A DNA stretch of 64,000 bases from an uncultured Candidatus Saccharibacteria bacterium. Lineage in GTDB: Bacteria > Patescibacteriota > Dojkabacteria > GCA-002793355. A model generated the notes under the pieces. The model did not search any database and was not told the origin of the DNA. It saw only the letters and a list, made by a program, of their open reading frames with translations. Within the stretch, counting starts at the first letter, position 1. The number at the start of each line of letters is the position of its first letter. The stretch lies in assembly GCA_964525295.1 (NCBI GenBank), contig CAZGEO010000002.1, forward strand, positions 258,551 to 322,550. Direction: 5' to 3'. Below, piece after piece: positions 15,896 to 42,826 of this stretch. The translations under genes and the position numbers were made by a program.

Positions 15896-17950
15896 ATGGA
15901 TTTCTCAACGCCTCTCAGTAAAGTTAAGTATGTTGGCGCTGTGAGAGCAGCAGCGCTTGCTGAGTATGAGCTACATAGTGCTGGTGATTTAGCAAATTTT
16001 GTTCCCTACGCGTATGAAGATACAACAGAAATATTATCAATTTCGCAATTGTATGAAAAATGGAGAAGTCTTCCATTATGGGAAACTCCGATGCAGCGAT
16101 TTACCGTCCGCGCAATTTTTGACAAATTAACGACATTTCGAACGCGTCGAGGATTGTATATTATTAAGGCACGTTTTTTTTCTTCAGAAAGCAACGAAGA
16201 AATTGGCGCTGTTTGGTTCAATCAAACATTCGTTACTCGTAACTTGCACTCTGGAAGCGAATACCTTTTATTTGGAAAAGTCTTGCAAGATGGTCGAAGA
16301 TTAGTGATTCAATCGCCACGTTTTGAAGAGCTTGCAGAAAATAAGGCTTTGAAGAATTTGGGTAAGGTTACTCCGCTTTACCATCGAATGAAGAAAATTA
16401 CTTCAGCTTATATTCGGCAGTTTTTATCAAGTTATGGTGAAGTCTTTGAGGCAATGCCAGAGTATATTCCGGCTGAAATATTGAAAGCAAACGATTTGTT
16501 GTCTTTAGGTGAATCTTATGCGCACGTGCATTTTCCTAAGAAAATTGAAGATCCTGAAATTGGGCGAAGGCGATTAGAGGTTCAAGAAATCCTTGAAATT
16601 AAGAAGAATATTGATGCAACAAGTTTGCAATCGCTTGGTGCTGGTACTTCATTATCAAATGAGTCACGAACTGTAATTGCGAGATATATTGGTGACTGTA
16701 TTGCTAAATTACCATTTACTCTTACGATATCGCAAGAGAACGCAGTGCAAAATATTGTTGAACAATTTGCTTTGGGGTCTCGCGTCGACACTTTTGTTTA
16801 TGGTGATGTCGGAAGCGGTAAAACTATAGTCGCCATGCTTCTTGCGTTTGCCCTAGCCAATATCGGTTACTCAACGGTAATCATGTCTCCGACCTCGATT
16901 TTGGCACAACAACATGTACAGACAGCAGAACAATTGATGAAGCTTTTTGGTAGTGATGCCTCGGTTGTACCTGTTAGCGCAGGAAGGAAGTACTCGAAAG
17001 CTGAAGGTGCTGCGCTCTATATTGGAACTCACGCATTACTGTTTTCGGAACAACTGAAAAATGATAAGTCGATAGGGTTAGTTGTTATCGATGAACAGCA
17101 TAGATTTGGCGTTGCCCAGCGTCAGCAATTGACGGAATTGTCATCAAGGCCACATATTCTGACATTGTCTGCAACGCCAATTCCACGAACATTGGCACTT
17201 TCATTTCTGGGCTTTTCGGAGGCAATATTTATTACCGAAAAGCCCAGTAATCGCAAAACTACCATAACTAAAGTAGTTCCAAACGACAAGGTTATTGTTA
17301 CATACGAGTGGTTGCGCAAGCGAGTCGAAGTCGCGGGAGAGCAAATATTTATGGTTTTCCCTCGTGTTGTTGCAGAAGATGATGTTGATAAGCAATCTGT
17401 TATTGCAATGAAAGAGTCGCTAGATAGTCAATTTTTCTCAGGTATTCCAACAGGAATAATATATGGAGGAATGGCAGAAAAAGAGAAGAGCAAAATAATG
17501 GATGCGTTTAGAGCAGGCGAAATCAAAGTTTTGTATTCAACAACTGTCATCGAAGTGGGAGTAGATGTACCAAACGCGACGGTGATAGCAATTCATGGCG
17601 CAGATCTCTTCGGAATGGCTCAATTACATCAATTGCGGGGCCGTGTAGGACGATCTGAAAAACAAGGATATTGTTTTCTTTTTAGTGATACAGAAGCAGA
17701 AACAGCGCAGGAAAGGTTAGAATACTTTGCTACACATTTTGACGGTATTGAATTGGCTGAATATGATTTGAAAAAGCGTGGTAGCGGTCAATTGACAGGG
17801 GTAACTCAAGCAGGTGGTTCAGAGCTAAAAATCGCGTCGCTCACCAATCTTTCATTAATACAAACTGCAATCAGTATCTACGATGAGCTAATTAAGCGGA
17901 AAATTGGAATTTTTGATTATATTCAGGTAAAATCGGGTCGTGCAGAATAA
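15896..17950 (+). CDS. recG: ATP-dependent DNA helicase RecG
   Basis: GDVGSGKT, DEQH, SATPIPRT helicase motifs and a wedge-domain N-terminus. Confidence 0.85.
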   Translation: MDFSTPLSKVKYVGAVRAAALAEYELHSAGDLANFVPYAYEDTTEILSISQLYEKWRSLPLWETPMQRFTVRAIFDKLTTFRTRRGLYIIKARFFSSESNEEIGAVWFNQTFVTRNLHSGSEYLLFGKVLQDGRRLVIQSPRFEELAENKALKNLGKVTPLYHRMKKITSAYIRQFLSSYGEVFEAMPEYIPAEILKANDLLSLGESYAHVHFPKKIEDPEIGRRRLEVQEILEIKKNIDATSLQSLGAGTSLSNESRTVIARYIGDCIAKLPFTLTISQENAVQNIVEQFALGSRVDTFVYGDVGSGKTIVAMLLAFALANIGYSTVIMSPTSILAQQHVQTAEQLMKLFGSDASVVPVSAGRKYSKAEGAALYIGTHALLFSEQLKNDKSIGLVVIDEQHRFGVAQRQQLTELSSRPHILTLSATPIPRTLALSFLGFSEAIFITEKPSNRKTTITKVVPNDKVIVTYEWLRKRVEVAGEQIFMVFPRVVAEDDVDKQSVIAMKESLDSQFFSGIPTGIIYGGMAEKEKSKIMDAFRAGEIKVLYSTTVIEVGVDVPNATVIAIHGADLFGMAQLHQLRGRVGRSEKQGYCFLFSDTEAETAQERLEYFATHFDGIELAEYDLKKRGSGQLTGVTQAGGSELKIASLTNLSLIQTAISIYDELIKRKIGIFDYIQVKSGRAE

Positions 17951-18452
17951 ATACGAGACATTAAGTGATTTAGTTAAGAAATCAGGTAAAAAAATATTCA
18001 TAGTTGTTGAAAATGTTCGCTCGGCATACAATGTAGGTGCTATGTTTCGTACAGCAGATGGAGCTGGAAACGTTGCAATGGTTTTAGTAGGTTACACGCC
18101 AACCCCCGAAAATCCGAAGGTAAAGAAAACTGCGCTCGGTGCTGAAGAACTGATTCCTTGGTGTCAAGTTGCTACTACGGCAGAACTAATCAATTTTTGT
18201 AAAGATACAAAAACTTCTTTGGTTGCAGTTGAGTTAACACCAGAAGCAAAGAATTTATTTGCATGGCAATCTCTCGAAGATCAAATTTTTCTTGCGGTTG
18301 GCAATGAAGTAACCGGTGTTTCTCTTGAATTAATTATGGCAGCAACTGATTCAGTCATGTTGCCGATGAATGGCCAAAAGGCATCGTTAAATGTTGCTGA
18401 GGCGACAAGTATTCTCATTTACGAGATGCTACGAAAGTCTACAAATCTGTAG
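17940..18452 (+). CDS. SpoU/TrmH-family RNA 2'-O-methyltransferase
   Basis: AYNVGAMFRTADGAG SPOUT motif. Confidence 0.75.
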   Translation: MQNKYETLSDLVKKSGKKIFIVVENVRSAYNVGAMFRTADGAGNVAMVLVGYTPTPENPKVKKTALGAEELIPWCQVATTAELINFCKDTKTSLVAVELTPEAKNLFAWQSLEDQIFLAVGNEVTGVSLELIMAATDSVMLPMNGQKASLNVAEATSILIYEMLRKSTNL

Positions 18453-18521
18453 AACAAATTTCACTGTCTCATAATATTTCTGGGTATGTTTGCTTTTACC
18501 AGGAATTCGTTTGTAACCCCT

Positions 18522-18549
18522 TTACAAACTCCAAAAAAATAGTTATAAT
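18522..18549 (+). promoter_or_regulatory. Sigma-70-type promoter of the dcw cluster (TTACAA, 16-nt spacer, TATAAT) ending 8 nt before the mraZ ATG
   Basis: Read directly in the sequence. Fits a leaderless or near-leaderless mraZ. Confidence 0.5.
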
Positions 18550-18557
18550 GGTGAAGT

Positions 18558-19046
18558 ATGGTGAAAACTGGTGAAATAACACAATTGGTTGGCGAATACA
18601 CAGGAAAAGTGGTCGCAGGTCATCGTGTTGCGTTACCAGCGCCATTAAGAAAGCAGCTTGGTACGAATTTCATTATCACAAAAGGTTATGAAGGATGTCT
18701 GCTTATTGTTCCGGCTGATGCGTGGCAGAAGCTGATTGAACCGATGCAGTCTCGCTCATTCCTTGATAGAAACGTTCGTGATTCTATGCGTTTTCTCGTC
18801 GGAAGTGCATATCAAATGGCTTCAGATGCCCAAGGTCGTGTTGTTGTACCTGAATCATTGAGAGAATATTCGAAAATTTCCTATTCAGAAAAGCGTGAAG
18901 CGGAAGTAGTCTTCGTAGGTTTGGTGAATTGGGTAGAAGTATGGGAAAAGAAATCTTGGCTTGATCGCTCCAATTACCTTGATGATAATGCTGACGCAAT
19001 CGCCCAAGAATTATTAGCTACAAAATCAGAAGGAGGGAATTTATAA
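18558..19046 (+). CDS. mraZ: Transcriptional regulator MraZ
   Basis: Duplicated DxxxR-type repeats. First gene of the dcw cluster. Confidence 0.8.
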   Translation: MVKTGEITQLVGEYTGKVVAGHRVALPAPLRKQLGTNFIITKGYEGCLLIVPADAWQKLIEPMQSRSFLDRNVRDSMRFLVGSAYQMASDAQGRVVVPESLREYSKISYSEKREAEVVFVGLVNWVEVWEKKSWLDRSNYLDDNADAIAQELLATKSEGGNL

Positions 19047-20002
19047 TGTCAGCTTCAGCACCAAAGAAAATTTACCACGTCCCGGTAATGTTGAAGGAAG
19101 TTGTTGAAGAGTTTTCGTTAATTCCTCAAAATGGTTGGATTGTTGATGGAACATTCGGTGATGGCGGGCACTCAAAAGAAATTTTTGCAAAGCGAGTAGC
19201 AACTTTTAAATCAAACAAGCTTTTAAGTATTGATTGGGATTTTTCTGGTTATGAAGCATTTATGACTCATGAAGGTGAAAAGCCAGTACTTGTTGAACAA
19301 CTGTCAGCAGAATCAAAATGGGTTTTAATAAAAGATAATTTTGCGAACTTAAAATATATTGCAAAGGATGTCGCAGAAAAAACTGGAGAAGAATTCAAAC
19401 TCGCGGGAATGTTGCTCGATTTAGGAATCTCATCCCGACAATATGTACAGAAGCAACGAGGTTTCAGTTTTTCTTCTGATGGAAAAGCAGATATGCGAAT
19501 GGGTGAAGTTTATAAGGTAGCTGCTTACGATTTATTGAATCTTTTAGGTTATAACAAATTAGTTCAAATGTTTGAGCACACAGTTGGCATGCCACATGCG
19601 TTAGCAGCCAAGCTTTCACATGAGTTGGTTGCGGAACGAACTCGCAAGCCATTCGGAAACAACGATGATATTGCAAGATTGAATGCAATTGCCTATAAAA
19701 CAACTCCAATTAGAGCGAATTCTGTTGGTAAAATTCATCCTGCAACGTTGCTTTTCTTGGCATTGAGAATCGCAGTTAATACTGAATTGCAGAATATTCA
19801 AGACATCCTCCCAGCAGCATTAAAATATGCGATTCCTGGAGCGAAATTGTTAATCATGTCTTATCACAGCGCCGAAGAACAGATAGTAACTGAATTTGTG
19901 AAGAATAATAAGTTGCATGCTGAAGTTCTTTTACCTTCAAAAAGTGAAATTGTGAAGAACCCACGCGCAAGAAGTTGTAAATTAACCATAATCACAGTAT
20001 GA
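19046..20002 (+). CDS. rsmH: 16S rRNA m4C1402 methyltransferase RsmH (MraW)
   Basis: HVPVML and DGTFGDGGHS motifs. Confidence 0.85.
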   Translation: MSASAPKKIYHVPVMLKEVVEEFSLIPQNGWIVDGTFGDGGHSKEIFAKRVATFKSNKLLSIDWDFSGYEAFMTHEGEKPVLVEQLSAESKWVLIKDNFANLKYIAKDVAEKTGEEFKLAGMLLDLGISSRQYVQKQRGFSFSSDGKADMRMGEVYKVAAYDLLNLLGYNKLVQMFEHTVGMPHALAAKLSHELVAERTRKPFGNNDDIARLNAIAYKTTPIRANSVGKIHPATLLFLALRIAVNTELQNIQDILPAALKYAIPGAKLLIMSYHSAEEQIVTEFVKNNKLHAEVLLPSKSEIVKNPRARSCKLTIITV

Positions 20003-20286
20003 AATTAACAAAAATTGCTATGTTCCTGTTTGCTGCAGTAACAATTTTTCTTATTGCATTACAATTTAAAGTTTCTGCGCAATATGAACCAATTGCACAA
20101 GAAGTTGGTATGATGGATACTCAATCGAAAGCATTGAACACGACATATCTTGATTATGAAGAGCAAGGTGCAATTCTTCGTTCAAGCGAATTTTTAGCTA
20201 CTGAACGAGCGAATGGCTATGTAAATGCTCCTGCAAAAGTTTTGTATGTAGATCCTTCAGCTCCAATTGTAAGTAGCAATGACTAG
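19999..20286 (+). CDS. ftsL: FtsL-like cell-division protein (single N-terminal TM)
   Basis: Size, topology and position between rsmH and ftsI. No diagnostic motif. Confidence 0.5.
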   Translation: MKLTKIAMFLFAAVTIFLIALQFKVSAQYEPIAQEVGMMDTQSKALNTTYLDYEEQGAILRSSEFLATERANGYVNAPAKVLYVDPSAPIVSSND

Positions 20287-22144
20287 GCAACCTGTAAAAA
20301 AAGGTGTTGAGAGCATTAGTTCTAGTAAGCGAGTTCGCAATCTGATTTTAGGAGTTGTAGTATTTGTTTCAATTTTGGTTTTGGTGCAATTGTTGCGGTG
20401 GCAAGTTTTTGAATATGATCGTTTTGCTGCACTCGCAAATGCGCAGTTGTCAGCAGCCGAAGAAATATTTACCAAGCGCGGTACGATTTACACTCAAGAT
20501 GGGGTAGTGTTGGCGGTTGATAGTCCCTCATGGGATATTGTTATTTCGCTAACAAATGACGTAGATAAGAAGTTTTTTACTCAAACGGTTGCCGATGTTG
20601 AGGCCAAATATGCGAAGATTTTGGCTTCAAATAAAGATAGTGATAAGCAATCAGTAATTGATGCAAATAATACATTGAAAGAGCGAGAGCTGGGTAAAAC
20701 AAAAGAGCGCGTCTTTGCAAAGATTTCTGAAATTATTGGTGAACCTACAGAAACGCTAGAGAAATCGTTCAACATTAAGGCTATGAGTTATCAGGTGATT
20801 TTTAAAGGTATAAATAAGCGACAACGTGATCAACTTGATGCCTTAAAACTTCACGGAATTTATACAAATGATGCGGTTAATCGACTGTATCCGAATGGGA
20901 ATTTGATGGCACATATCATTGGGTATGTTGGCACTGACAGCAATGGTGAGCCACGTGGGAATTATGGTGTCGAAGGATTTTTCTGGGGAGATATTAAGGG
21001 TAAAGAGGGTATAACTCAACAAGAGAAAGATTTATCAGGTAAGGCAATTATCAGTAAAGAGTATAGAAATATTCGATATAGAGAAGGAAAGAATATTGTA
21101 TTAACGGTTAACTCAGGTATACAGAAAAAAGTTGAAAAAATTCTTGCAGAAGGAGTGCAAGAGCAAAAAGGTGATAGTGGTACGGTCATTATCATGGATC
21201 CAAAATCAGGGAACATTATCGCAATGGCAACATATCCTGATTATGATCCAAACGAGTTTTGGAAAGTAAAAGATGTTGGAATATTTTCGAACAAAGCGGT
21301 ATCTGGTCCTTATGAATATGGTTCTGTGCAAAAGCCTCTGACAATCGCAATGGCAATGACTGAAGGCAAACTAACAGAAAATGACATTTGCAATGACACC
21401 GGAAAAATGACTATAGATAACGAGACAATCTATAACTTTTCGTTTGTTAAGCACGGTAAGATAACACCTATGCAAACTTTGCAGTATTCAGATAACATTT
21501 GCGCTGCAGAATATGGTCTTAAAGTCGGAGCTCAAGCGATGCATGGGTATCTTATTAGATTAGGAATTGGATCACCAACAGGAATCGGTATTCACGAAGA
21601 AGAAACAAGTTTCCTAAAGGCAGCTAATAAATGGTTGAACATTGATACCGCAACCACTTCGTATGGGCAAGCAATTTCAGCGACGCCATTACAGTTACTT
21701 TCTGCGCTTTCAACTTTGGCAAATCATGGTGTTCGTATGCAACCAAAGCTAGTCGAAAAAATTTATAATAATGAAGACGAAATTGTAATTCCCCCAACGT
21801 CTGCAGGGCAGGTTTTTCCGCCAGAAATCGCAGATAAGGTTGCCGGAATGATGCGTGAAGCAGCAATGTCTCGACCAGAATTTAGAAAATATCGTAATAT
21901 TTATTCTATTGCGGGGAAAACTGGTACAGCTCAGGTTGCGAAATCCGATGCATCGGGGTATTATGACGATAGAACGAACGTAACATTTGTAGGGTTTGCT
22001 CCCGCAGAAGATGCGCGTTTCATCATGTTGGTGAAAGTTGCAAATCCCAAGAATGCTACGCTTGCAAACTTAACGGTAATGCCTCTGTGGTTGAAAATCT
22101 TTGATACAATCAAAGATGATCTTGGCGTGCCGAGAATAAACTGA
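20279..22144 (+). CDS. ftsI: Class B penicillin-binding protein / FtsI-type D,D-transpeptidase
   Basis: N-terminal TM, SVQK (SxxK) and KTGTA (KTG) motifs. Confidence 0.85.
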   Translation: MTRQPVKKGVESISSSKRVRNLILGVVVFVSILVLVQLLRWQVFEYDRFAALANAQLSAAEEIFTKRGTIYTQDGVVLAVDSPSWDIVISLTNDVDKKFFTQTVADVEAKYAKILASNKDSDKQSVIDANNTLKERELGKTKERVFAKISEIIGEPTETLEKSFNIKAMSYQVIFKGINKRQRDQLDALKLHGIYTNDAVNRLYPNGNLMAHIIGYVGTDSNGEPRGNYGVEGFFWGDIKGKEGITQQEKDLSGKAIISKEYRNIRYREGKNIVLTVNSGIQKKVEKILAEGVQEQKGDSGTVIIMDPKSGNIIAMATYPDYDPNEFWKVKDVGIFSNKAVSGPYEYGSVQKPLTIAMAMTEGKLTENDICNDTGKMTIDNETIYNFSFVKHGKITPMQTLQYSDNICAAEYGLKVGAQAMHGYLIRLGIGSPTGIGIHEEETSFLKAANKWLNIDTATTSYGQAISATPLQLLSALSTLANHGVRMQPKLVEKIYNNEDEIVIPPTSAGQVFPPEIADKVAGMMREAAMSRPEFRKYRNIYSIAGKTGTAQVAKSDASGYYDDRTNVTFVGFAPAEDARFIMLVKVANPKNATLANLTVMPLWLKIFDTIKDDLGVPRIN

Positions 22145-22159
22145 ACTGATTAATAAAAC

Positions 22160-23203
22160 ATGTTATCGCTATCACTTTTCATGGTTAAGGAACTCGTTTT
22201 ATGGGCATTATTGGGCATAGTAGCTGCAGCAATTTGGGTAGTTCCACTAATCGACTTACTGTATAAATTGCAATTTACTGCACAACATTTGGCTATGCCA
22301 AATAAAATTAACGCCGAATGGATGAAAATTCATGGCAACACAACCGGAACTCCAAGTTTGGGCGGAATTCTTATCTGGATCACCGTGCCTGTATTACTTT
22401 TATCAGTTTTTTGGGCAATTCCTTTGATGCGTGCAATAGGTTTCATTGTGTTAATTGTAGGTTTATACGGTTTAATCGATGGGATTTTGGATGTTGTTAA
22501 GAAAAATGATGTGAAGTTCAGGGAATTTCAAAATAGCTTCGAATGGCGCGTCGGAAAATTACTTGTTTCATTGATTATGAATGTCGCTGTTGCATTACTT
22601 ATTGTGAACGTGGCAGGCGTAAAATCATTCGATTTCTTCGGTATATCTTTTGCAATTGATAATGTTATTGGAATAGCATTTCTATCGGTTGTTGCTTCGG
22701 TGTTCACCTATGCAACAGAGATAATTGATGGGATTGATGGTCTTTCTTCTGGTATGTATATCATCACCTTGTTAGGTTTCGTGCTACTTATGCTTGCGTT
22801 GCCTGCGCAATTTCTGACTTCTGCTGCAACCTCGGCAATTTCTGGCGTTGGCGTTTATCTCGGAGTTTTGATTGTTTATTTGTACTTCAATATCCCACCT
22901 GCTCGTTTTTACATGGGTGGCCCAGGTGCGATGCCAATGGGGGCGGTTTTTCTGCTTTTAGGATTATTTGGAAATGTCGTTCCAGCCTTATTAGTTCTTA
23001 TGGTCCCGTATCTTCTAGATTTAGCAACCAGTTTTATACAACTTTTCTCGATTAAATTTCTTAATCGTAAGGTTTTCAAAATCGCTCCAGTTCATCACCA
23101 TTTCGAAGCAATAGGGTGGCCTTCACCAAAGGTTGTTATGCGTTTTTGGTTATTTAATATTGTGACAATCTTCTTAGCTTTAGCTGTTCAATTGTTCATA
23201 TAA
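22160..23203 (+). CDS. mraY: Phospho-N-acetylmuramoyl-pentapeptide transferase
   Basis: DGIDGLSSG and PVHHHFE motifs, polytopic. Confidence 0.9.
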   Translation: MLSLSLFMVKELVLWALLGIVAAAIWVVPLIDLLYKLQFTAQHLAMPNKINAEWMKIHGNTTGTPSLGGILIWITVPVLLLSVFWAIPLMRAIGFIVLIVGLYGLIDGILDVVKKNDVKFREFQNSFEWRVGKLLVSLIMNVAVALLIVNVAGVKSFDFFGISFAIDNVIGIAFLSVVASVFTYATEIIDGIDGLSSGMYIITLLGFVLLMLALPAQFLTSAATSAISGVGVYLGVLIVYLYFNIPPARFYMGGPGAMPMGAVFLLLGLFGNVVPALLVLMVPYLLDLATSFIQLFSIKFLNRKVFKIAPVHHHFEAIGWPSPKVVMRFWLFNIVTIFLALAVQLFI

Positions 23204-23209
23204 GAAGTT

Positions 23210-24226
23210 ATGTTCAGAAAATCTGCCCAAAAGAACAAAAACAGTTTTAGAAAGAAACCATCAGTTGCTCTTAACCGCCTAAATAATTCAGAATTTCGTA
23301 AAGGTTTAGGTAGAATTCTTCTCGTGGTGGGTGGCATGGTGCTTTTTTGCGCTGCAATATACGGTGGATATGTCGGCATTCGTAGTTTAATTGATTCTGG
23401 TTATAGACCAGGAAGTAGTACATTCGAGGCTTGTTCTGGGCAATTAACCTCAATTAAGGCAACTCCAATGTACGGTGCTGTATTTACGATTTCTGGTGAT
23501 TTAGTCGAGAAAATTGACATTACTGCACCTGATGGAGCAGGCCTTCACTCGCTTGAATTATCTGCTGATGCTAGGGTAATGGTTTATTTTTCTAACAACT
23601 TTATGTTTTCACAAATTGGTGAACTTTTACGATTTAGTAAACTTGAGAAGAACGCAATTGATTATTGCTTTTTGTTGGAGCAATTATCACTAACTACTGG
23701 GCTTCCTGTGGAATATATAATTGTTAATGATAAAGAAACTGGGGTAATTTCGACATTACCTCTTCGAGAGATTCGTCGAATTATTAAACAGGTCACTGAA
23801 GGGAAAAAATTAGCGTTCAAACAAAACCTTTTACCAGAGTATAGATTATCAGATGGATCTTCAGCAAAAGTTATTACTTATGCTGCGATGAAAGAACAAT
23901 TTCCCAACTTTTTCAAAATACCAGAAATTGCTCAAGAGCAGGCATTTGTCGAAGTCTATAATTCGACAAATATTGATGGTTATGCAAGCATTATCTCTAG
24001 AAAATGGTCGATGTTAGGAATTGAAATTTCAAGAGTAGGAAACAGTTCGCATGAACAACTTAGTGACGCTGTCGCAGTTGTATATGTTAAAGATGCGAGT
24101 AAGTATCAGCGAACATTAGCGATGATTAAGAGTTCACTAATTGGTGGTAAGGTGATCGTAAAAGAAGGTCGCCCTTCAAATGTGGTCACCACCGGAGATA
24201 TTGTAGTTTTCCTTCTTAAACGGTAG
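23210..24226 (+). CDS. Membrane-anchored protein with a C-terminal LytR_C-like domain
   Basis: N-terminal TM. C-terminal approximately 100 aa fit the LytR_C pattern (V.VYNST..DGYA....L...G.....G.....T.V.Y......A..I...L.GG.V......P....T.DIVV.L). Confidence 0.5.
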   Translation: MFRKSAQKNKNSFRKKPSVALNRLNNSEFRKGLGRILLVVGGMVLFCAAIYGGYVGIRSLIDSGYRPGSSTFEACSGQLTSIKATPMYGAVFTISGDLVEKIDITAPDGAGLHSLELSADARVMVYFSNNFMFSQIGELLRFSKLEKNAIDYCFLLEQLSLTTGLPVEYIIVNDKETGVISTLPLREIRRIIKQVTEGKKLAFKQNLLPEYRLSDGSSAKVITYAAMKEQFPNFFKIPEIAQEQAFVEVYNSTNIDGYASIISRKWSMLGIEISRVGNSSHEQLSDAVAVVYVKDASKYQRTLAMIKSSLIGGKVIVKEGRPSNVVTTGDIVVFLLKR

Positions 24227-24232
24227 AATAGA

Positions 24233-26668
24233 TTGTCTATGGATCCGATACTGCTCACAGTCATAATTGTTGTTTCTTTGTTTTTATTAGTGTTATTCAT
24301 TGTTGCAATTTTTCCCAAACGTAAAACGACAGAGGCTTTTCCTGCAGGAACAAATGAAAAATTGGTAGGTGTCCAAAGAGTCGTTCTTCAAATAGCAGTT
24401 CCAAAAAATAATGACAAAACTCCACTGGCTGCGGAGCAACTGTTTGCTTCTCTACACGGCCTATACAAAGAAAGTGCTGCAGTAGCAACAATGAGCTTGG
24501 AGATTGCTTCAAATGCAAAGTTTGGCGTTCAATTTTATATTGTTGCAGAGAGTTCTCAAGTAGCTTACATCAAAGGGCAAGTTTACGCGCAATATCCAAC
24601 TGCAGAAATTTCTGTGGTGTCTGATTATATGGAGCAAGCTTTGCAATGGGGGCCTTCAATTCATGTTTCTGCTGGTGAGATAATGCTTGAACGAGAGCAT
24701 ATTTTTCCAATAAAAACATTTAAAGATTTTGATGTTGATCCACTTTCAGGCATTACTGGTGCTCTCAGCGAGATGAGTGGTGACGAAGAAACCTGGATTC
24801 AATATGTGATTCGTCCATATCCTAATATGTGGCAAAAAGTTTCTCAGAAATACATATCTGCATTAAGAGCAGAAGGCAACAATATATTCGACACTCCGTC
24901 ATTTTGGAAAACTTTTTGGGGAATAATTACTGGATTCTTTCGCTATTTTTTTGATTCGTTGACATATGATCCAACAAAAGTAACTCTGCCGACTAAACAG
25001 CCTTCTATACGTCTTGAACCATATCAAGAAGAAGAGATTCGTAGGGTAGAAGAGAAATCGCAGAAGCAAGGTTTTCAAGTGGCTATTCGAATTCTTTCGA
25101 AAAGTGGAGATCCAAATAGAGCAGTACAGCTATTTGAAGGAATTGCTGCCTCTTTTAGGCAGTACGCGACTGCTCATCTAAATGCATTTACTCTCAATTT
25201 GGCAAAACCAGCAGCAGAGGTCTTTACCAATATGAAAGAACGTTACATTCCAATTGCTCATGATGAAATCTTAACAATTGAAGAAATAGCTTCAATGTAT
25301 CACTTACCAAATACAACTGGCGGATCAACTTCACTGTTTGTAACTACTGCAGGAAAATTACCACCACCTGTTGATTTACCGATTAATGAAGGTACAGTCA
25401 TTGCGCAAACAAACTATCGAGGAGAAAATCAAATCTTTGGTATCAAAAAGAAAGATAAGCGCCGTCACACATATATAATTGGTCGTACTGGTACAGGAAA
25501 GACGAGTTTAATGAGAAACATGATCGTTTCAGATATTCTGGCCGGAGAAGGTGTTGGCCTTATCGATCCTCATGGTGAAACGGCAGAATTTATACTTGAT
25601 CATATTCCTGCTCATCGCGTTGAAGATGTGATCTATTTTAATCCTGGTGATGTTGAATATCCTGTTGGTTTCAATCCAATTTATGTTAAAGATCGTAATC
25701 AACGTGATCTTATTGCTGATAATATTATTGGTGTTTTCAAGAAATACTTCGATTCTTGGGGGCCAAGGCTTGAGTATATTTTATACAATACCATTTTATC
25801 TGCACTTGACTCACAAGGAACAACCTTACTATCAGTTCAACGAATGTTGACCGATGCTGAATATCGAAAGCGTGTACTATCGCATGTAAAAGATCCGATG
25901 ATTCATAGATTTTGGCGAGAAGAGTTTAGTATGATCGAAGAAAATCGCAAACTGCTCTCAGATGCAGTAGCACCAATTCAAAATAAAATCGGGCGTTATC
26001 TTTCACCGAGAATAACTCGCAATATCCTTGGACAAACCAAATCAACATTTAATATACGCGAAATGATTGATTCAAAAAAAATATTCATAGCAAACTTATC
26101 AAAGGGGAAAATTGGTGAAGAGAATACTTCGCTGTTAGGTGGTCTTTTAATTGCACGCATTTACACGGCTGCTATGGAACGAGTCGATATACCAGAAGAG
26201 CAACGAGAAGATTTCTCACTATACATTGATGAAGTGCAAAGTTTTACTACAGATGCGTTTGTCAATATACTCTCTGAAGCTCGTAAATATCGCTTGTCGC
26301 TTGTAATTAACCATCAATTTACTGAGCAATTACCAACTGAGATGCGTTCAGGAATTTTTGGAAACGTCGGTACAATGATTGCATTTAGCGTTAGTCAAAA
26401 AGATGCAACTGTTTTAGCCCAAGAATTTGCTCCATACGTAACACCTGAAGATATTCTTGCTTTACCAAATTATCATTTGTATCTTCGTATGGTTATTAAT
26501 GACAGGATTTCGGAACCTTTCAGCGCAGTTTCATTGCCTTTTAGATATCAGCCATTTGGTTACAAGGATATCATAAAACAGATGTCTCGCGATAAATATG
26601 CAGTTCCTCGCGATGTAATTGAAGAAAAAATTGCGCGTTGGGCTGAGAATAAGGGAGAAGAATCGTAA
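24233..26668 (+). CDS. FtsK/HerA-superfamily type IV secretion-type ATPase (VirB4/VirD4/TraG-like). N-terminal TM plus an approximately 400-aa unique domain.
   Basis: Walker A GRTGTGKTS followed by LIDPHGE (the DPKGE-type motif of T4SS ATPases), Walker B LYIDEVQSF, downstream HQFTEQL Q-motif. 811 aa. Confidence 0.6.
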   Translation: MSMDPILLTVIIVVSLFLLVLFIVAIFPKRKTTEAFPAGTNEKLVGVQRVVLQIAVPKNNDKTPLAAEQLFASLHGLYKESAAVATMSLEIASNAKFGVQFYIVAESSQVAYIKGQVYAQYPTAEISVVSDYMEQALQWGPSIHVSAGEIMLEREHIFPIKTFKDFDVDPLSGITGALSEMSGDEETWIQYVIRPYPNMWQKVSQKYISALRAEGNNIFDTPSFWKTFWGIITGFFRYFFDSLTYDPTKVTLPTKQPSIRLEPYQEEEIRRVEEKSQKQGFQVAIRILSKSGDPNRAVQLFEGIAASFRQYATAHLNAFTLNLAKPAAEVFTNMKERYIPIAHDEILTIEEIASMYHLPNTTGGSTSLFVTTAGKLPPPVDLPINEGTVIAQTNYRGENQIFGIKKKDKRRHTYIIGRTGTGKTSLMRNMIVSDILAGEGVGLIDPHGETAEFILDHIPAHRVEDVIYFNPGDVEYPVGFNPIYVKDRNQRDLIADNIIGVFKKYFDSWGPRLEYILYNTILSALDSQGTTLLSVQRMLTDAEYRKRVLSHVKDPMIHRFWREEFSMIEENRKLLSDAVAPIQNKIGRYLSPRITRNILGQTKSTFNIREMIDSKKIFIANLSKGKIGEENTSLLGGLLIARIYTAAMERVDIPEEQREDFSLYIDEVQSFTTDAFVNILSEARKYRLSLVINHQFTEQLPTEMRSGIFGNVGTMIAFSVSQKDATVLAQEFAPYVTPEDILALPNYHLYLRMVINDRISEPFSAVSLPFRYQPFGYKDIIKQMSRDKYAVPRDVIEEKIARWAENKGEES

Positions 26669-26684
26669 TTCATGTTATCGAAAG

Positions 26685-26712
26685 AAAAAAGGGGGCTTTT
26701 ACCCCCTTTTTT
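26685..26712. terminator. Bidirectional intrinsic terminator (aaaaaggggg-ctttta-cccccttttt) between convergent genes
   Basis: Perfect 10-bp stem with A-run and T-run arms, read directly in the sequence. Confidence 0.6.
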
Positions 26713-26739
26713 CTCCTTATACAAACGGAACAAAAGAGA

Positions 26740-28155
26740 TTATACCGTTGCTTCTGGTTCAGGTTGCGGTTCTGGTTCAAGAGCCTCAAGAATAACTTCC
26801 ATTTGATCTTGAGTCAAGACGCCTGAAAGTTTTGAAACTGCCTTCTTTGCGGCTTTTAGCATATCTTCTTGTGTTTCTGGTCGCTTTGGCGCCGGTTCAC
26901 TTACCGCATTAAAGATTTGATAGAACCCTTGAAGAACTTTATTTGTAATAGGTAATTCTGGGTTTCGTGCTTGAATTATTCCAGTTACCATGGCTTTAAT
27001 TAGTCTTGCTACTGTCTCGGCTGTTTCTGCAGTTGTACCAAGTCTTCCAACTGTTTCGTTGACAAATCCGAGTACTGCCTTGAGGTCTTCTTGCGGTACA
27101 TTTGAAACATCAATGTCGAACTTTTCTGCAAATTTGTATCCGTAATCAGAAAGCCCGTCACCAGCTTTGATAGCCATCTTTATTAGGGTCATAAGGCTAT
27201 CAAATTCATCAGCTCCAATTTGTATAGTTTCGGATTTCGCTCTAATGGCTCGAAGAACATTATCGAGTGTGCTGCCGTCACCCTCGGGTAATTCTAGGTC
27301 ACCCAATCCTAATTGTTGTGCTGCCTTTTTTGCTTCTTTTATATAATCTGCAATACCTTTTCTTGCTGCATCACCGACTTCATCTGGGCTTGCAGTATTA
27401 TTACTGTTTCTAAAGTGTTCAAATGCATGGCCTAAACCGAATATCGCAGCACCGCCGGCAATTGTTCTCATTACCGCTCTACGCGCATCGTCTAAGGTCT
27501 CATTGTCTTTAGTTGACGCTTTTATTGCTCTGTAACTGAAGAAAGCAACAATTGGCACTGCAGCTATTAAACCCTTTGTTGCTGCATGACGAAGGAATTT
27601 TTCAGTATTTGTTTCTGAACGACCATCTGCAGTATTGCGTTTTTCCCATTCTCTGTTCAACTCGCCAGATGCTATGACTGTTGCAATTACTAATTCAATT
27701 CCAGTCATTGCTTCTGCCAGTTTGTCCCAAATACTTTCTTTTTTAGGATTCTTATCAGTTTCTTTACTTTTTGGACCAGGGCCTGGATTCACTGGTGGTG
27801 GCTCAACTTCTGGAAGCGGATTAGGAATTGGTTCTTCTTCAAAAGTGAGTATAAAATCTTTATGGTTTTTCAAAAATTCAGATGCAACATGTTTATTATT
27901 TTCGAAATCTGTCGCTCTGACGCTAGCACTACGTGCTACCATAGCAGTTAAGAAATCTGAAGTTTCTGGACGCGGATCAGGAGCAGTTGAAAATTCGGTA
28001 ATTAGGGAACTGGTAAACAACTGGAGAGCTTTCTCTTTGTTCTCACCATTGTTTAAATATTCACTAAATACATCCATAGCTTCTGGTCGGCCAACTTCAA
28101 CTGCAGCTATAACAATTGCTGTTGCAAAACGAGCAGCGTATTCTTCTGCAGTCAT
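26740..28155 (-). CDS. Hypothetical membrane protein (471 aa; Pro-rich linker, 2-3 TM helices, largely alpha-helical)
   Basis: Long ORF with no recognisable catalytic motif. Second gene of a two-gene minus-strand operon. Confidence 0.5.
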   Translation of the reverse strand: MTAEEYAARFATAIVIAAVEVGRPEAMDVFSEYLNNGENKEKALQLFTSSLITEFSTAPDPRPETSDFLTAMVARSASVRATDFENNKHVASEFLKNHKDFILTFEEEPIPNPLPEVEPPPVNPGPGPKSKETDKNPKKESIWDKLAEAMTGIELVIATVIASGELNREWEKRNTADGRSETNTEKFLRHAATKGLIAAVPIVAFFSYRAIKASTKDNETLDDARRAVMRTIAGGAAIFGLGHAFEHFRNSNNTASPDEVGDAARKGIADYIKEAKKAAQQLGLGDLELPEGDGSTLDNVLRAIRAKSETIQIGADEFDSLMTLIKMAIKAGDGLSDYGYKFAEKFDIDVSNVPQEDLKAVLGFVNETVGRLGTTAETAETVARLIKAMVTGIIQARNPELPITNKVLQGFYQIFNAVSEPAPKRPETQEDMLKAAKKAVSKLSGVLTQDQMEVILEALEPEPQPEPEATV

Positions 28156-28541
28156 TATTCGTCCAAAAGATTTTTTGGATAATCAATTGGTGGATTTTTA
28201 GAACGAGCATCTGAACGTAATTTTTGATAAAATTTTTCGCCTAACCCAGTTAATAGGGGCATATCTTCAGCAATTTTATAAATAGTATTGATTGGAGCTA
28301 GAGATGCATTACTCTCGACACCAGAGAATTGCTCAGAAAGTACGTTAGAATGCAGTGTTCTTACCGCACACATAAAGTTTCTAGTGTCGTTCTGATCTTT
28401 CGAAATTGATGAGATATTTTCACGTCGCTGATTTACGCTTACGACAGCATCGATAGTTCTTTTTTGTCCATCTGGTTGATAGGTATATATATCATTGTTA
28501 CCTGATTTTGGTTCTGTAAATATTTCGGAAGAAATTTTCAT
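28155..28541 (-). CDS. Hypothetical protein (128 aa)
   Basis: ORF directly downstream of a canonical promoter. Stop overlaps the next gene's start. Confidence 0.45.
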   Translation of the reverse strand: MKISSEIFTEPKSGNNDIYTYQPDGQKRTIDAVVSVNQRRENISSISKDQNDTRNFMCAVRTLHSNVLSEQFSGVESNASLAPINTIYKIAEDMPLLTGLGEKFYQKLRSDARSKNPPIDYPKNLLDE

Positions 28542-28568
28542 ACTTACCCAGTAAAATTACTATAAGAC

Positions 28569-28597
28569 ATTTTACGCTTTTCGCGTAGAATTGTCAA
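28569..28597 (-). promoter_or_regulatory. Consensus sigma-70 promoter on the minus strand (TTGACA, 17-nt spacer, TAAAAT) driving 28541..26740
   Basis: Read from the reverse complement. Perfect -35, 17-nt spacer. Confidence 0.5.
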
Positions 28598-28622
28598 TAC
28601 ATTATTATAATAAACCATGTAT

Positions 28623-28651
28623 TTGTCAATCCATAATTCCCGCAGTATAAT
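28623..28651 (+). promoter_or_regulatory. Sigma-70 promoter (TTGTCA, 17-nt spacer, TATAAT) ending 5 nt before the yebC ATG, a leaderless arrangement
   Basis: Read directly in the sequence. Confidence 0.5.
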
Positions 28652-28656
28652 CGCCT

Positions 28657-29430
28657 ATGGCAGGACATTCACATTGGCATAATATTCAGCAAGCAAAGGG
28701 TAAGGCCGATGCTAAAAGAGGTATTCTTTTTACTAAAGCAGCACAGCAGATTATTCTTGCTGCGCGAGAAGGTGGTGGAGACCCCAATCATAATCTTTCT
28801 TTACGAATTGCTATTGATTATGCCAAGTCAGTTAATATGCCGAAGGATAATATTGAACGCGCAATAAAAAAAGGAACGGGAGAAGATGGTGAAGGACGTT
28901 TAGAAAAAGCAATTTACGAAGGTTACGGACCTTATAAAATTCCTGTTATTGTCGCAGCTATTACCGATAATAAAAATCGAGCAGTAAGTGAAATTCGTAA
29001 CATTTTTACCAAAGCTAATGGAGAATTAGGATCGATAGGTACAGTCATGTGGCAGTTTACTGAATCTGGGAGAATCATTTTACGCTCGGTCAAAATTAAA
29101 CCAGGTGAAAAATTTGGAGAATCTGATACAGAGATTGCAATTGATCGTGATGAAGCGACTCTAGAACTCATGGAAGTTCCTGAAGTGGAAGATATTGAAC
29201 TTGACGAAGAGAATAAAGAACAAATATTTGTGAAAGCGCCAACAACGCGACTCGCTCAAGTTGCCCAAGGTATTCGAGAGAGAGGATATGTAATTGTTTC
29301 ATCGGGGCAACATTTTGAGCCAAACAATTGGATTGATATTCCAGAAGATAAACAAGCTATTTTTGCTGATTTTCTTGATAAACTTGAAGATCAACAAGAT
29401 GTGCAGCATATTTGGCATGCTGCAAATTAA
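28657..29430 (+). CDS. yebC: YebC/PmpR-family DNA-binding regulator
   Basis: MAGHSHWHNIQ...KRG N-terminus. Classic yebC-ruvC pairing. Confidence 0.85.
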   Translation: MAGHSHWHNIQQAKGKADAKRGILFTKAAQQIILAAREGGGDPNHNLSLRIAIDYAKSVNMPKDNIERAIKKGTGEDGEGRLEKAIYEGYGPYKIPVIVAAITDNKNRAVSEIRNIFTKANGELGSIGTVMWQFTESGRIILRSVKIKPGEKFGESDTEIAIDRDEATLELMEVPEVEDIELDEENKEQIFVKAPTTRLAQVAQGIRERGYVIVSSGQHFEPNNWIDIPEDKQAIFADFLDKLEDQQDVQHIWHAAN

Positions 29431-41069: not shown

Positions 41070-41445
41070 GCTGGTTAAACATGATCACATATCCTTCGGG
41101 ATCTTTAATAGAAAATTCGATAGTGCCATAATTTGTGTGATGTAATGGCTGTATAAGGCAAGGGTAATTGTCGAACTGTTTGTAAAGACTATGAATATCT
41201 TCTACTTCAAGAAATAAGGCAATGGTCCCAGAAGTTTTTAAGTCAGCAAAGTGCGGGATTTCTTCTACAAATTCGTTGCGACGATAAAGCATTAAGGTTA
41301 CAGGGCCGTTTGCGATTATAGCGAAAAAAGCTGCTGTTTCTGGTGACGAGTTAACAATAGAAAAATTCAGCTCTTTCGTATAAAAATCGATCATTTTTTG
41401 CATGTCATCGACAAGCAATTCGGTGACTAGAGATTTAGCTTTCAT
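41059..41445 (-). CDS. VOC / glyoxalase-bleomycin-resistance family protein
   Basis: Two beta-alpha-beta-beta-beta modules of a typical glyoxalase fold. Confidence 0.6.
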   Translation of the reverse strand: MKAKSLVTELLVDDMQKMIDFYTKELNFSIVNSSPETAAFFAIIANGPVTLMLYRRNEFVEEIPHFADLKTSGTIALFLEVEDIHSLYKQFDNYPCLIQPLHHTNYGTIEFSIKDPEGYVIMFNQHGN

Positions 41446-42826
41446 AAGATTTCTTTACCTCTTGTTGAAATAGGTCACCACGTTCTTCAAAATTTTTGAA
41501 CATGTTATAGCTAGGCGAGGCTGGTGAAAGCAGACAGATTTTGCCCTTTGCAGTTTTCTCTTTTGCAAAAGTGACTGCATCGTGCAGTGTTTCTGCAAAT
41601 AAGGTAGTAAATCTCTCTACTATCAAGGGATTTTTCTTCTTCATTAATTCCCAGATGATTGCTCCTGAAGTTGGAAGAAAGGCAATATTTTTAACGGTCG
41701 AGGTAGGCAAGTATTCAGCTATTGGGGTGAAATCTATCCCTCGATCTAGTCCCCCTAGAATAATGGTATCGACATTCTTAAGAGCTTCTATTGCCTGAAT
41801 GGCAGCCTGAGGAATTGTTGAAATTGAGTCATCGTAATAGGCTATTTCGTTATATGTACCAAAATACTGCATTCTGTGAGGGAGTGGCTCAAATTCACTG
41901 ATAACTTGTGTAATTATTTCATTTTTCAATCCTAAGTGTTTTGCCACACAGATGGCAGCCATAATATTGTATAGATTATGCTTCCCAAGAAGATGTCGCG
42001 GTGACGCAGTGTCGTATACTGCTTCTGCACCATAATAAAGGATGCCGTTTTTCTCATAACATCCATTTATAGATTCACGATCGTTTGAAAAGAAGCTTTT
42101 TTCCCCGTTGTGCGTACTTTTAGCGACAAACTCATGCAATAAAGAATGGTCACGATTATAGACCAATAGATCGTTATTTCCTTGATGTAGGAATATGTTA
42201 AGTTTTGAATTAACGTAGTTTTCGAAAGTTCCATGGTGATCAAGATGCTCCTCATACAGATTGAGCAAAATAGCAATATGAGGTGAAACACGTGAGTATT
42301 CCAATTGATATGAAGACATCTCGCAAACAACGGTGGTTGTGGTGTTGAGGGTATCTATGACATCAAATATCGGAATTCCAATATTGCCAGTTAGCACAGA
42401 ATCAGGATTGGCTTTATGAACCATCTTATAAAGTAAAGCGGTTGTCGTGCTTTTGCCCTTTGAACCTGTAATACCAATTACGTTAACAGCGTTGAATTCA
42501 AGGAGTAAATCTAACTGAGAAGTGAGTTTTGACTTAACTTCATCGTCAATTTTTCCTTCTAATGCTATGCCAGGTGTTTTAATTATTAAGTCGAAATCAG
42601 GCAATACCGAAAGATAGTTTTCGCCAAGGTGCAACGTTAAGTTTGAATCGTTCGTCAGTAAGGGTGATTCTTTGACCTTTTCAGAGGCATCGGCAATCGC
42701 AAATTTTTGCTCTGGCAAATATTTGCGCAATAATAAGTAAGCTGATTGCCCTTCTTTACCAAAGCCCAATATTAGGATTTTTTTGTTTTCAGTCTTTGCA
42801 ATAATTTTTTTTACTAACCAGTTCAT
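41435..42826 (-). CDS. murD: UDP-N-acetylmuramoylalanine--D-glutamate ligase
   Basis: N-terminal Rossmann ILILGFGKEG and Mur ligase P-loop GITGSKGKSTTT. Confidence 0.8.
   Translation of the reverse strand: MNWLVKKIIAKTENKKILILGFGKEGQSAYLLLRKYLPEQKFAIADASEKVKESPLLTNDSNLTLHLGENYLSVLPDFDLIIKTPGIALEGKIDDEVKSKLTSQLDLLLEFNAVNVIGITGSKGKSTTTALLYKMVHKANPDSVLTGNIGIPIFDVIDTLNTTTTVVCEMSSYQLEYSRVSPHIAILLNLYEEHLDHHGTFENYVNSKLNIFLHQGNNDLLVYNRDHSLLHEFVAKSTHNGEKSFFSNDRESINGCYEKNGILYYGAEAVYDTASPRHLLGKHNLYNIMAAICVAKHLGLKNEIITQVISEFEPLPHRMQYFGTYNEIAYYDDSISTIPQAAIQAIEALKNVDTIILGGLDRGIDFTPIAEYLPTSTVKNIAFLPTSGAIIWELMKKKNPLIVERFTTLFAETLHDAVTFAKEKTAKGKICLLSPASPSYNMFKNFEERGDLFQQEVKKSYES

Follow-up and report, generated by a model that had tools for sequence, protein, structure and literature searches.

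A strain-variable cassette slot between an ATPase gene and yebC in Candidatus Dojkabacteria and its putatively frameshift-split occupant

Introduction

Among the described variable loci of bacteria, the replacement-type flexible genomic islands or allelic cassette loci, e.g. the O-antigen and capsule loci, lie between conserved flanking genes. Here, a small locus is analyzed in a stretch of 64,000 nucleotides (nt) from the genome of a member of Candidatus Dojkabacteria (WS6, Candidate Phyla Radiation (CPR)/Patescibacteria; assembly GCA_964525295.1, contig CAZGEO010000002.1, positions 258,551 to 322,550). This whole stretch is called the window, and its positions are counted from its first letter. 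The locus comprises two open reading frames (ORFs) on the minus strand, p128 and p471, situated between an ATPase gene and yebC. Taken as a whole, it is on balance best explained as the current occupant of a cassette slot which extends from the ATPase to yebC and varies between strains of Dojkabacteria. In its pattern, the locus appears to belong to the known class of replacement-type variable loci, which are newly observed here in Dojkabacteria; no annotation exists for the proteins, and no relatives beyond their own family were detected.

Other described systems resemble parts of this locus. In the type VII secretion system of Staphylococcus and Listeria, variable effector modules are present downstream of the FtsK/SpoIIIE ATPase EssC; their genes have the same orientation as essC, whose 3' end co-varies with the module. 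The ATPase next to the slot can be compared with the coupling proteins VirD4 and TrwB. For the junction of p128 and p471, the closest counterparts are the A_AAA_AAG-type -1 frameshift sites, as in dnaX and insertion sequence (IS) elements, and the homopolymer contingency loci.

Results

A hypervariable slot between conserved flanks

A search with the ATPase as query recovered syntenic loci of Dojkabacteria, which are referred to here by locus numbers (L003, L005 and so on). The gene order of the flanks is mraZ-rsmH-ftsL-ftsI-mraY-p338-ATPase-(slot)-yebC-ruvC-ytxH-fnr-pap2-phr, with 47-87% protein identity. The slot, defined by synteny as the interval from the ATPase stop codon to the yebC start codon (26669..28656 in the window), ranges from 53 bp to 4.7 kb among the relatives. 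In the window, p128 and p471 are the only unit in the slot, and both were found as the coupled pair that an earlier sequence-only reading had described (28541..28155 and 28155..26740):

28155..28541, minus strand, p128 ORF of 128 amino acids (aa), from the ORF call
26740..28155, minus strand, p471 ORF of 471 aa, from the ORF call
28153..28157, minus strand, TAATG stop-start overlap, in which the p128 stop TAA and the p471 ATG share one base

The variability of the slot can be seen in L006, L008 and L010, which come from different samples. Their flanks are 99-99.6% identical in DNA, and the identity ends at the ATPase stop codon on one side and a few bases before the yebC ATG on the other. The contents of the slot in these loci and in a locus with an empty slot are as follows:

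L006, 10423-12369, one unrelated hypothetical protein of 648 aa, WKZ23952.1
L008, proteins of 399, 731, 43 and 314 aa
L010, proteins of 414 and 682 aa
L005 (cMAG.19), empty, 53 bp

L008 and L010 have 100% identical ATPase, YebC and p338 proteins; their short genes share 27% identity and their long genes 29%. The ATPase genes of L006, L008 and L010 (minus strand in L008 and L010) end in TGA, TAA and TAG, respectively, with the L006 stop at about 10419-10421; therefore, the breakpoint of the cassette lies within the stop codon itself. The two additional ORFs in the L008 slot (43 aa, 11491-11622, and 314 aa, 11704-12648) gave no profile match, and neither did WKZ23952.1, which possesses a proline-rich C-terminal region.

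Alleles are swapped wholesale between strains, reassort and cross lineages, with purifying selection within each class. Between L003 and L008, the short genes share 88% identity but the YebC proteins only 66%, and the synonymous divergence (dS) of these short genes, 0.97, is below that of the saturated flanks. L028 (1409-4661) combines a short allele of the L008 type (95%) with a long allele of the L003 type (96%). The ratio of nonsynonymous divergence (dN) to dS within allele classes is 0.06 and 0.067, and this purifying selection indicates that the family genes encode functional proteins. A sister strain, L030 (SRR32934939), could be compared with window positions 16239-26992. Its flanks are 98.5-99.5% identical to those of the window, and the last 253 nt of p471 show 90.9% identity with a 6-nt indel. 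This 3' end of p471 has dN of 0.082 and dS of 0.21, compared with 0.001-0.003 and 0.02-0.06 in five flanking genes, and divergence rises about 8-fold directly after the terminator. The jump suggests that hypervariability also acts within the allele class of the window.

No flanking repeats, tRNA genes or recombinase/integrase genes were found in the surroundings of the slot. The GC content of the slot (0.41) is near that of the flanks (0.36-0.40), so that base composition does not hint at a recent foreign origin. The simplest mechanism of replacement would be homologous recombination in the conserved flanks. Like the replacement islands, the slot is fixed in position, shows near-identical flanks, unrelated or diverged content and sharp breakpoints, lacks integrase, tRNA and repeats, and holds allele classes which cross lineages and reassort. 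Unlike the O-antigen and capsule loci, it encodes one or two paralogous helical proteins and no glycan-synthesis cluster. It also differs from replacement islands in its tiny size (up to 4.7 kb) and in its host, an uncultured CPR bacterium with a genome of about 1 Mb.

The slot protein family

By sequence comparison, p471 is a member of a small unannotated family of long helical proteins of 580-780 aa. Exhaustive HMMER search of 1.84 billion representatives identified two relatives, P0009 (682 aa, E 6.7e-19) and P0010 (776 aa, E 1.6e-8), whose genes both occupy the same slot and are oriented towards the ATPase gene. In word-indexed searches, p471 itself was the sole match, and a word search of 5.8 billion proteins found no homologue of p128. 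A family hidden Markov model (HMM) built without p471 matched it with 76 bits (E ~1e-25, profile positions 243-622 of 679), and BLASTP against the 682-aa protein of L010 gave E 1.7e-24. Slot proteins of the other syntenic loci, missed by tblastn at 1e-2, joined the family in all-against-all BLASTP and profile comparisons. The family was seen in one subclade of Dojkabacteria only, always between yebC and the ATPase (about 13 loci sampled). In all 11 family-bearing loci (the window, L003, L008, L009, L010, L013, L014, L027, L028, L029 and L030), the genes lie in the slot and are convergent on the ATPase.

The family shares an architecture composed of a helical N-terminal domain (N-domain) of about 280 aa, a disordered linker rich in proline and glutamate, three weakly hydrophobic helices and a helical C-terminal domain (C-domain) of about 200 aa. 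In most loci, a 'short' paralogue of about 400 aa with N-domain, linker and helices comes first and is followed by one 'long' member. The N-domain carries the motifs YEKMQ.DA and KIPGLT..NG, while the C-domain carries GT.AET.ET.AR..K.......Q..NPE, in which T374, A376, E377, T378, E380, T381, R384, Q395, N398, P399 and E400 (p471 numbering) are invariant in p471, P0009 and P0010. The corresponding parts of p471 are as follows:

27766..27837, minus strand, linker rich in proline and glutamate, residues about 107-130, EEPIPNPLPEVEPPPVNPGPGPKS (alignment)
27421..27720, minus strand, three conserved, marginally hydrophobic helices rich in alanine and glycine, with polar loops, residues 146-164, 195-213 and 227-245
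26956..27036, minus strand, best-conserved motif of the C-domain, residues 374-400 (alignment with P0009 and P0010)

p471 possesses the profile match, the slot position, the linker, the three helices and the GT.AET.ET.AR C-domain of the family; a complete N-domain of about 280 aa in the same polypeptide is missing, and the IPGLT motif is absent. The proline-rich linker, already pointed out in the 471-aa protein from the sequence alone, is present in every long and short family member. In L014 (2736-2832), a 21-nt tandem repeat of 4.6 copies encodes PPANPDL repeats in the linker of a 631-aa member, which is a possible source of length variation.

The helix region of p471 matches the same region of its relatives with an hhalign E of 1.6e-4. 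Its three helices have Kyte-Doolittle means of 1.2-1.5 and Hessa-type sums of +5.5 to +6.7 kcal/mol (best 19-mers), compared with -6.5 to +2.9 for the transmembrane (TM) helices of MraY, PAP2, FtsL, p338 and the ATPase in the window. The earlier description of 2-3 TM helices was thus right in that three conserved hydrophobic helices exist, but overstated their grade. As it had also stated, neither protein has an assignable motif: for p128, p471 and eight slot relatives, no usable match was found in Pfam, NCBIfam, PHROGs or PADLOC. A weak match to a tape-measure PHROG (E 0.0096) was rejected as spurious. The profile search of PDB with the family alignment returned insignificant coiled-coil matches only, tblastn of the family against phage genomes returned no match, and the aligned C-terminal tails of the family showed no common signal.

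Evidence for a split gene

The two ORFs, previously taken for a two-gene operon, most likely represent a single family gene broken by a -1 frameshift, because p128 matches colinearly the profile part which p471 lacks and the short frame overlap is centered on an A6 tract. p471 covers the family profile only from about position 200 on, and the other 10 long members have the full N-domain. With the N-domain HMM, residues 84-115 of p128 match profile positions 110-141, the YEKMQ.DA helix, with 4.6 bits, a score reached in 7 of 2000 shuffles. This match is in the part of the profile missing from p471, upstream and colinear. In a comparison of the six-frame segments of the whole window, the p128 frame gave the best hit apart from p471, and BLASTP aligns residues 28-118 of p128 with 37-134 of the 731-aa protein of L008 (E 0.079). 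When the ORFs are conceptually fused at the A tract, a single high-scoring segment pair (HSP) of BLASTP runs through the junction (fused residues 46-407 against 65-459 of the 731-aa protein, E 1.5e-7). The summed length of 599 aa (128 + 471) is inside the family length range. p128 is probably the N-terminal fragment of a long-family gene and corresponds to about profile positions 1-145. Equating MPLLTGLGE of p128 with the family motif IPGLT..NG was considered and dropped; the HMM places residues 84-115 on the preceding YEKMQ.DA helix.

The junction of the two frames contains one candidate site:

28176..28170, minus strand, A_AAA_AAT heptamer (A6 tract) in the p128 frame, within the 9-codon two-frame overlap, likely -1 frameshift site

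The p471 frame is open for just 9 codons upstream of its ATG, and this stretch holds CCAAAAAATC. Per 9 codons, the chance expectation is 0.014 for an in-frame A6N heptamer and 0.046 for any X_XXY_YYZ. One added A gives an uninterrupted ORF of about 599 codons. All three assemblies have A6 at the junction, and the locus including the junction is 100% identical in two independent public assemblies (over 21 kb and 10 kb). An indel by replication slippage and a programmed -1 frameshift predict one and the same site; the mutational split is favored because there is no stimulatory structure at the usual distance. Like the dnaX and IS sites, the A-tract heptamer is exactly at the two-frame overlap, here within a variable gene. 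Unlike these sites and the contingency loci, the tract is short (A6), has no downstream stimulator at the usual spacing and shows no length variation in the three assemblies.

A rather probable course of events, judged for its three steps together, is that a single long-family gene would have been split by the loss of one nucleotide, turning an A7 tract into A6. The promoter-proximal 128-aa ORF would then be its N-terminal fragment, and the remaining 471 aa (end of the N-domain, linker, helices and C-domain) would still be translated by termination-reinitiation, which the TAATG overlap would permit. No Shine-Dalgarno (SD) core was found upstream of the p471 start; this absence tells little, since SD cores precede just 6 of the 62 window ORFs.

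Transcription unit

p128 and p471 form a transcription unit with its own promoter, coupled ORFs and a terminator common with the convergent ATPase gene. The predicted signals are as follows:

28597..28569, minus strand, sigma-70-like promoter of p128/p471, TTGACA-17-TAAAAT, 11/12 matches
28629..28601, minus strand, second tandem promoter-like site, TTGACA-17-AATAAT, 11/12 matches
28623..28651, plus strand, divergent yebC promoter, TTGTCA-17-TATAAT
26683..26714, both strands, bidirectional intrinsic terminator, common to p471 and the convergent ATPase

The p128/p471 promoter is predicted to be of the sigma-70 type from its hexamers and 17-nt spacing, and the p128 ATG begins 27 nt after the end of its -10 box. 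It was present where the sequence-only reading had placed it, but with one mismatch it is not 'perfect'. The second tandem site and the divergent yebC promoter overlap in their -35 boxes, and all three promoter-like sites lie within one 115-nt spacer between p128 and yebC. The 64-kb window contains just 7 sites with at least 11/12 matches, compared with 2.2 +/- 1.5 in Markov-1 random sequence, and 3 of the 7 are in this spacer. The terminator, also anticipated in that reading, has arms which form a perfect 13-nt inverted repeat (26683-26695 and 26702-26714) with A and T tracts at the sides. Its folding energy is -24.4 kcal/mol on the minus strand and -20.2 on the plus strand (z -5.6 and -4.7), and it is kept in the sister strain L030. 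Codon usage in frame is 0.29 for p128 and 0.41 for p471, with a mean of 0.30 for the window genes.

Apart from this unit, 12 of the 62 gene-like ORFs of the window have a TATAAT box with at least 5/6 matches ending 4-9 nt before the start codon. An example is yebC (TATAAT at 28646..28651, ATG at 28657), and the same feature is found upstream of yebC in L003, L006, L008, L009 and L010. As SD cores are few and start-adjacent TATAAT boxes are many, leaderless mRNAs seem to be common in this Dojkabacteria genome. The 27-nt distance makes p128 an exception to this pattern.

The neighboring ATPase and the genome context

The gene convergent with p128/p471 is given here for context only:

24233..26668, plus strand, ATPase with DUF8128 and a DUF87/TrwB-like P-loop domain and one strong N-terminal TM helix

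Its start is ambiguous, with TTG at 24233 giving 811 aa and ATG at 24239, used by public gene calls, giving 809 aa. The Pfam model TrwB_AAD_bind matches it with 33.2 bits (cut-off 20.5), the sole PDB match is a weak one to the P-loop of TrwB, and all the NCBIfam models of type IV coupling proteins (T4CPs) and VirB4 score far under their cut-offs. Among the large window ORFs scanned and the slot-flanking genes, no VirB4, VirB6 or other gene of a type IV secretion system (T4SS) was detected, with housekeeping matches throughout. The label 'T4SS-type' given to the ATPase earlier thus stands for superfamily resemblance and is no evidence of a secretion system at the locus.

The ATPase is an orphan VirD4/HerA-like protein which is conserved across CPR beside housekeeping genes. 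Homologues from other CPR (38-41% identity) lie next to ClpB, S1, TopA, FtsQ, sigma70-r4/HARE-HTH or peptidyl-prolyl isomerase genes, without a family member. Some of the distant homologues (L015-L024) are longer, 1067-1164 aa, and L016 (1286-6358) and L017 (1627-9414) have a second paralogous copy nearby with 33% identity. A preprint on CPR T4SS counted 5,713 VirD4-like genes in 2,918 CPR genomes, only 148 of them near virB4, with most of the VirD4-like genes reported as orphans, and the VirD4-like copy of Southlakia was non-essential for epibiotic growth (10.1101/2025.01.22.634366).

The functional link between p128/p471 and the ATPase, which the sequence-only reading had proposed, is not supported, and the cassette does not appear to be a dedicated partner of the ATPase. 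The identity of the ATPases remains at 64-100%, whether the slot beside them is empty (L005), unrelated in content (L006) or occupied by family alleles of about 27% identity. As ATPases with 100% identity adjoin different cassettes and the breakpoint is at the stop codon, there is no co-variation of ATPase and cassette. The co-occurrence check gave an asymmetric picture: every family member found (11 loci) adjoins the ATPase, but L005, L006 and L015-L024 have the ATPase and no family member. The adjacency of the family to the ATPase weighs little because the whole region is syntenic in a narrow clade, and this strict synteny accounts for it equally well.

Like the EssC modules, the locus has a conserved ATPase of the FtsK/HerA/VirD4 superfamily followed by strain-specific genes without Sec signals. 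Unlike them, the ATPase stays unchanged as far as its stop codon, the cassette is convergent with its own promoter and no other secretion genes are present in the window. The ATPase shares with VirD4/TrwB the P-loop, the N-terminal membrane anchor and the TrwB_AAD_bind match; unlike these coupling proteins, it possesses a DUF8128 N-domain, is not near virB4 or a relaxase gene and adjoins cell-division and housekeeping genes.

The rest of the window is of housekeeping nature, with tRNA synthetases, penicillin-binding proteins, trigger factor and Mur ligase. Positions 18558-26668 hold an abbreviated dcw-like cluster, mraZ-rsmH-ftsL-ftsI-mraY, followed by p338 and the ATPase. p338 is a 338-aa single-TM protein with a weak LytR_C match under the cut-off. 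The Mur ligase gene is situated apart from the cluster, at 41435-42826.

Discussion

The rival explanations weighed here are not all mutually exclusive. A genuine two-gene operon, with p128 as an independent small protein, p471 naturally truncated at its N-terminus and TAATG as ordinary coupling, is unlikely. The codon usage of both ORFs is coding-like, TAATG coupling is common in bacteria and the similarity of p128 to the N-domain is weak, but that similarity is exactly in the profile part lacking in p471 and follows the order of the profile, the lengths of both ORFs add up to a family-like total, the 10 other long members have the full N-domain, the frame overlap is short with a homopolymer at its center, and the word search of 5.8 billion proteins gave no homologue of p128. 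Somewhat more doubtful still is a decaying pseudogene, with the gene inactivated by the frameshift and both products without function. The frameshift does interrupt a domain, the gene is dispensable as the slot can be empty, and dN/dS is raised to about 0.39 over the 81 codons comparable with L030. Against decay, 471 codons remain open after the shift, their codon usage in frame is stronger than in the average gene, promoter and terminator are intact and the stop-start overlap would preserve expression; decay alone would not readily account for the raised dS (0.21, flanking genes 0.02-0.06), which is more indicative of recombination between alleles. The split may instead be regulated, by programmed -1 frameshifting at A_AAA_AAT or by slipped-strand phase variation, giving a full-length protein of about 598 aa in a fraction of ribosomes or cells, which is improbable. 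This reading predicts a junction-spanning peptide, ..DYPKNSFGRIMTAEEY.. by -1 frameshifting or ..DYPKKSFGRI.. from an A7 variant. A 0-frame X_XXY_YYZ heptamer in a 9-codon overlap has a chance expectation of 0.014-0.046, and phase-variable tracts are usually found in hypervariable loci. However, no stimulatory structure occurs 5-9 nt downstream (the nearest stable stem is about 17 nt after the heptamer, and the 86-nt fold is just modestly unusual with z -2.2), A6 is a short tract for frequent slippage and is found in all three assemblies, and the same homopolymer site would be expected for a mutational indel.

As to function, the pattern of alleles suggests, tentatively and at less than even confidence, that the family product would be an envelope protein associated with the membrane, with its variable parts exposed to an external partner. 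This partner would be a phage or, as the bacterium is presumed to be an episymbiont, its host cell; as part of the same proposal, negative frequency-dependent selection would keep many allele classes. That p128 and p471 would instead be structural partners or substrates of the adjacent ATPase, with the variable cassettes as polymorphic cargo, has little probability. All family members lie beside the ATPase, convergent and with a common terminator, they lack a Sec signal, their helices are of the reduced hydrophobicity typical of secreted membrane-targeted effectors, and the ATPase has TrwB/VirD4-like features. It is nevertheless conserved beside an empty (L005) or unrelated (L006) slot, 100% identical ATPases adjoin 27-29% identical cassettes with the breakpoint at the stop codon and no co-variation, its distant CPR homologues have housekeeping neighbors and no family member, and T4CP models of NCBIfam score far under cut-offs; the transcription units are separate and convergent, the window holds no T4SS gene and the family tails no common signal. 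A conflict system in a hotspot resembling a defence island, e.g. an abortive-infection module against phages or a polymorphic toxin which forms pores and is paired with an immunity partner, is similarly improbable. Strain-level replacement, allele classes common to several lineages and paired paralogous genes would suit it, as would the amphipathic, weakly hydrophobic helical hairpin, which is reminiscent of pore-forming domains. Opposed to it are the lack of any match in PADLOC, Pfam or PHROGs, of phage or plasmid similarity, and of tRNA, integrase and flanking repeats; the window's slot has no small immunity-like membrane gene, and the members of a pair are paralogues, not toxin and antidote. 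Most speculative, and highly improbable, is that the slot holds polymorphic Sec-independent cargo of an orphan VirD4-like ATPase, a minimal effector-delivery module of strain-specific helical proteins which, by means of weakly hydrophobic helices, would insert into the membrane of the host bacterium and set the host range of the episymbiont, with the A tract as an on/off switch of the full-length form.

Several points weigh against the preferred account, that of a frameshift-split family gene in a variable slot encoding an envelope protein. p128 matches the N-domain only weakly, with 1-5 bits, a shuffle p of ~0.004 and E 0.079, and could be a small ORF without relation to the family. An intact version of this allele was not seen in any relative; in the sister strain L030, the contig ends 3' of the junction. 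A membrane or surface location of the product is a prediction and somewhat doubtful, as the helices fall short of the TM helices of the window; p471 does not reach TM-grade hydrophobicity, and p128 and p471 have no N-terminal signal peptide or anchor, their N-termini being polar or amphipathic. AlphaFold2 models were all-helical with very low confidence, with a predicted local distance difference test (pLDDT) score of 38 for p471 (3-sequence alignment) and 40 for P0009 (9-sequence alignment). Diversifying selection is deduced from the allele patterns. The restriction of the family to the slot refers to the roughly 13 Dojkabacteria loci sampled, and whole genomes were not searched for copies outside it.

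If the preferred account is true, what looks like an operon of two coupled genes can be one gene split by a frameshift, and the result cautions against the use of CPR 'VirD4-like' ATPases as markers of secretion. The slot would be among the fastest-changing places in the streamlined and highly syntenic genomes of Dojkabacteria, with allele classes which are maintained, shuffled and passed between lineages. To our knowledge, almost nothing is known about the determinants of host recognition or phage evasion in CPR bacteria. In organisms for which attachment to other cells is presumed, loci of this kind are natural candidates for these determinants, and the slot may be a useful lead on host- or phage-interaction determinants in CPR, in an organism which is not cultivable.

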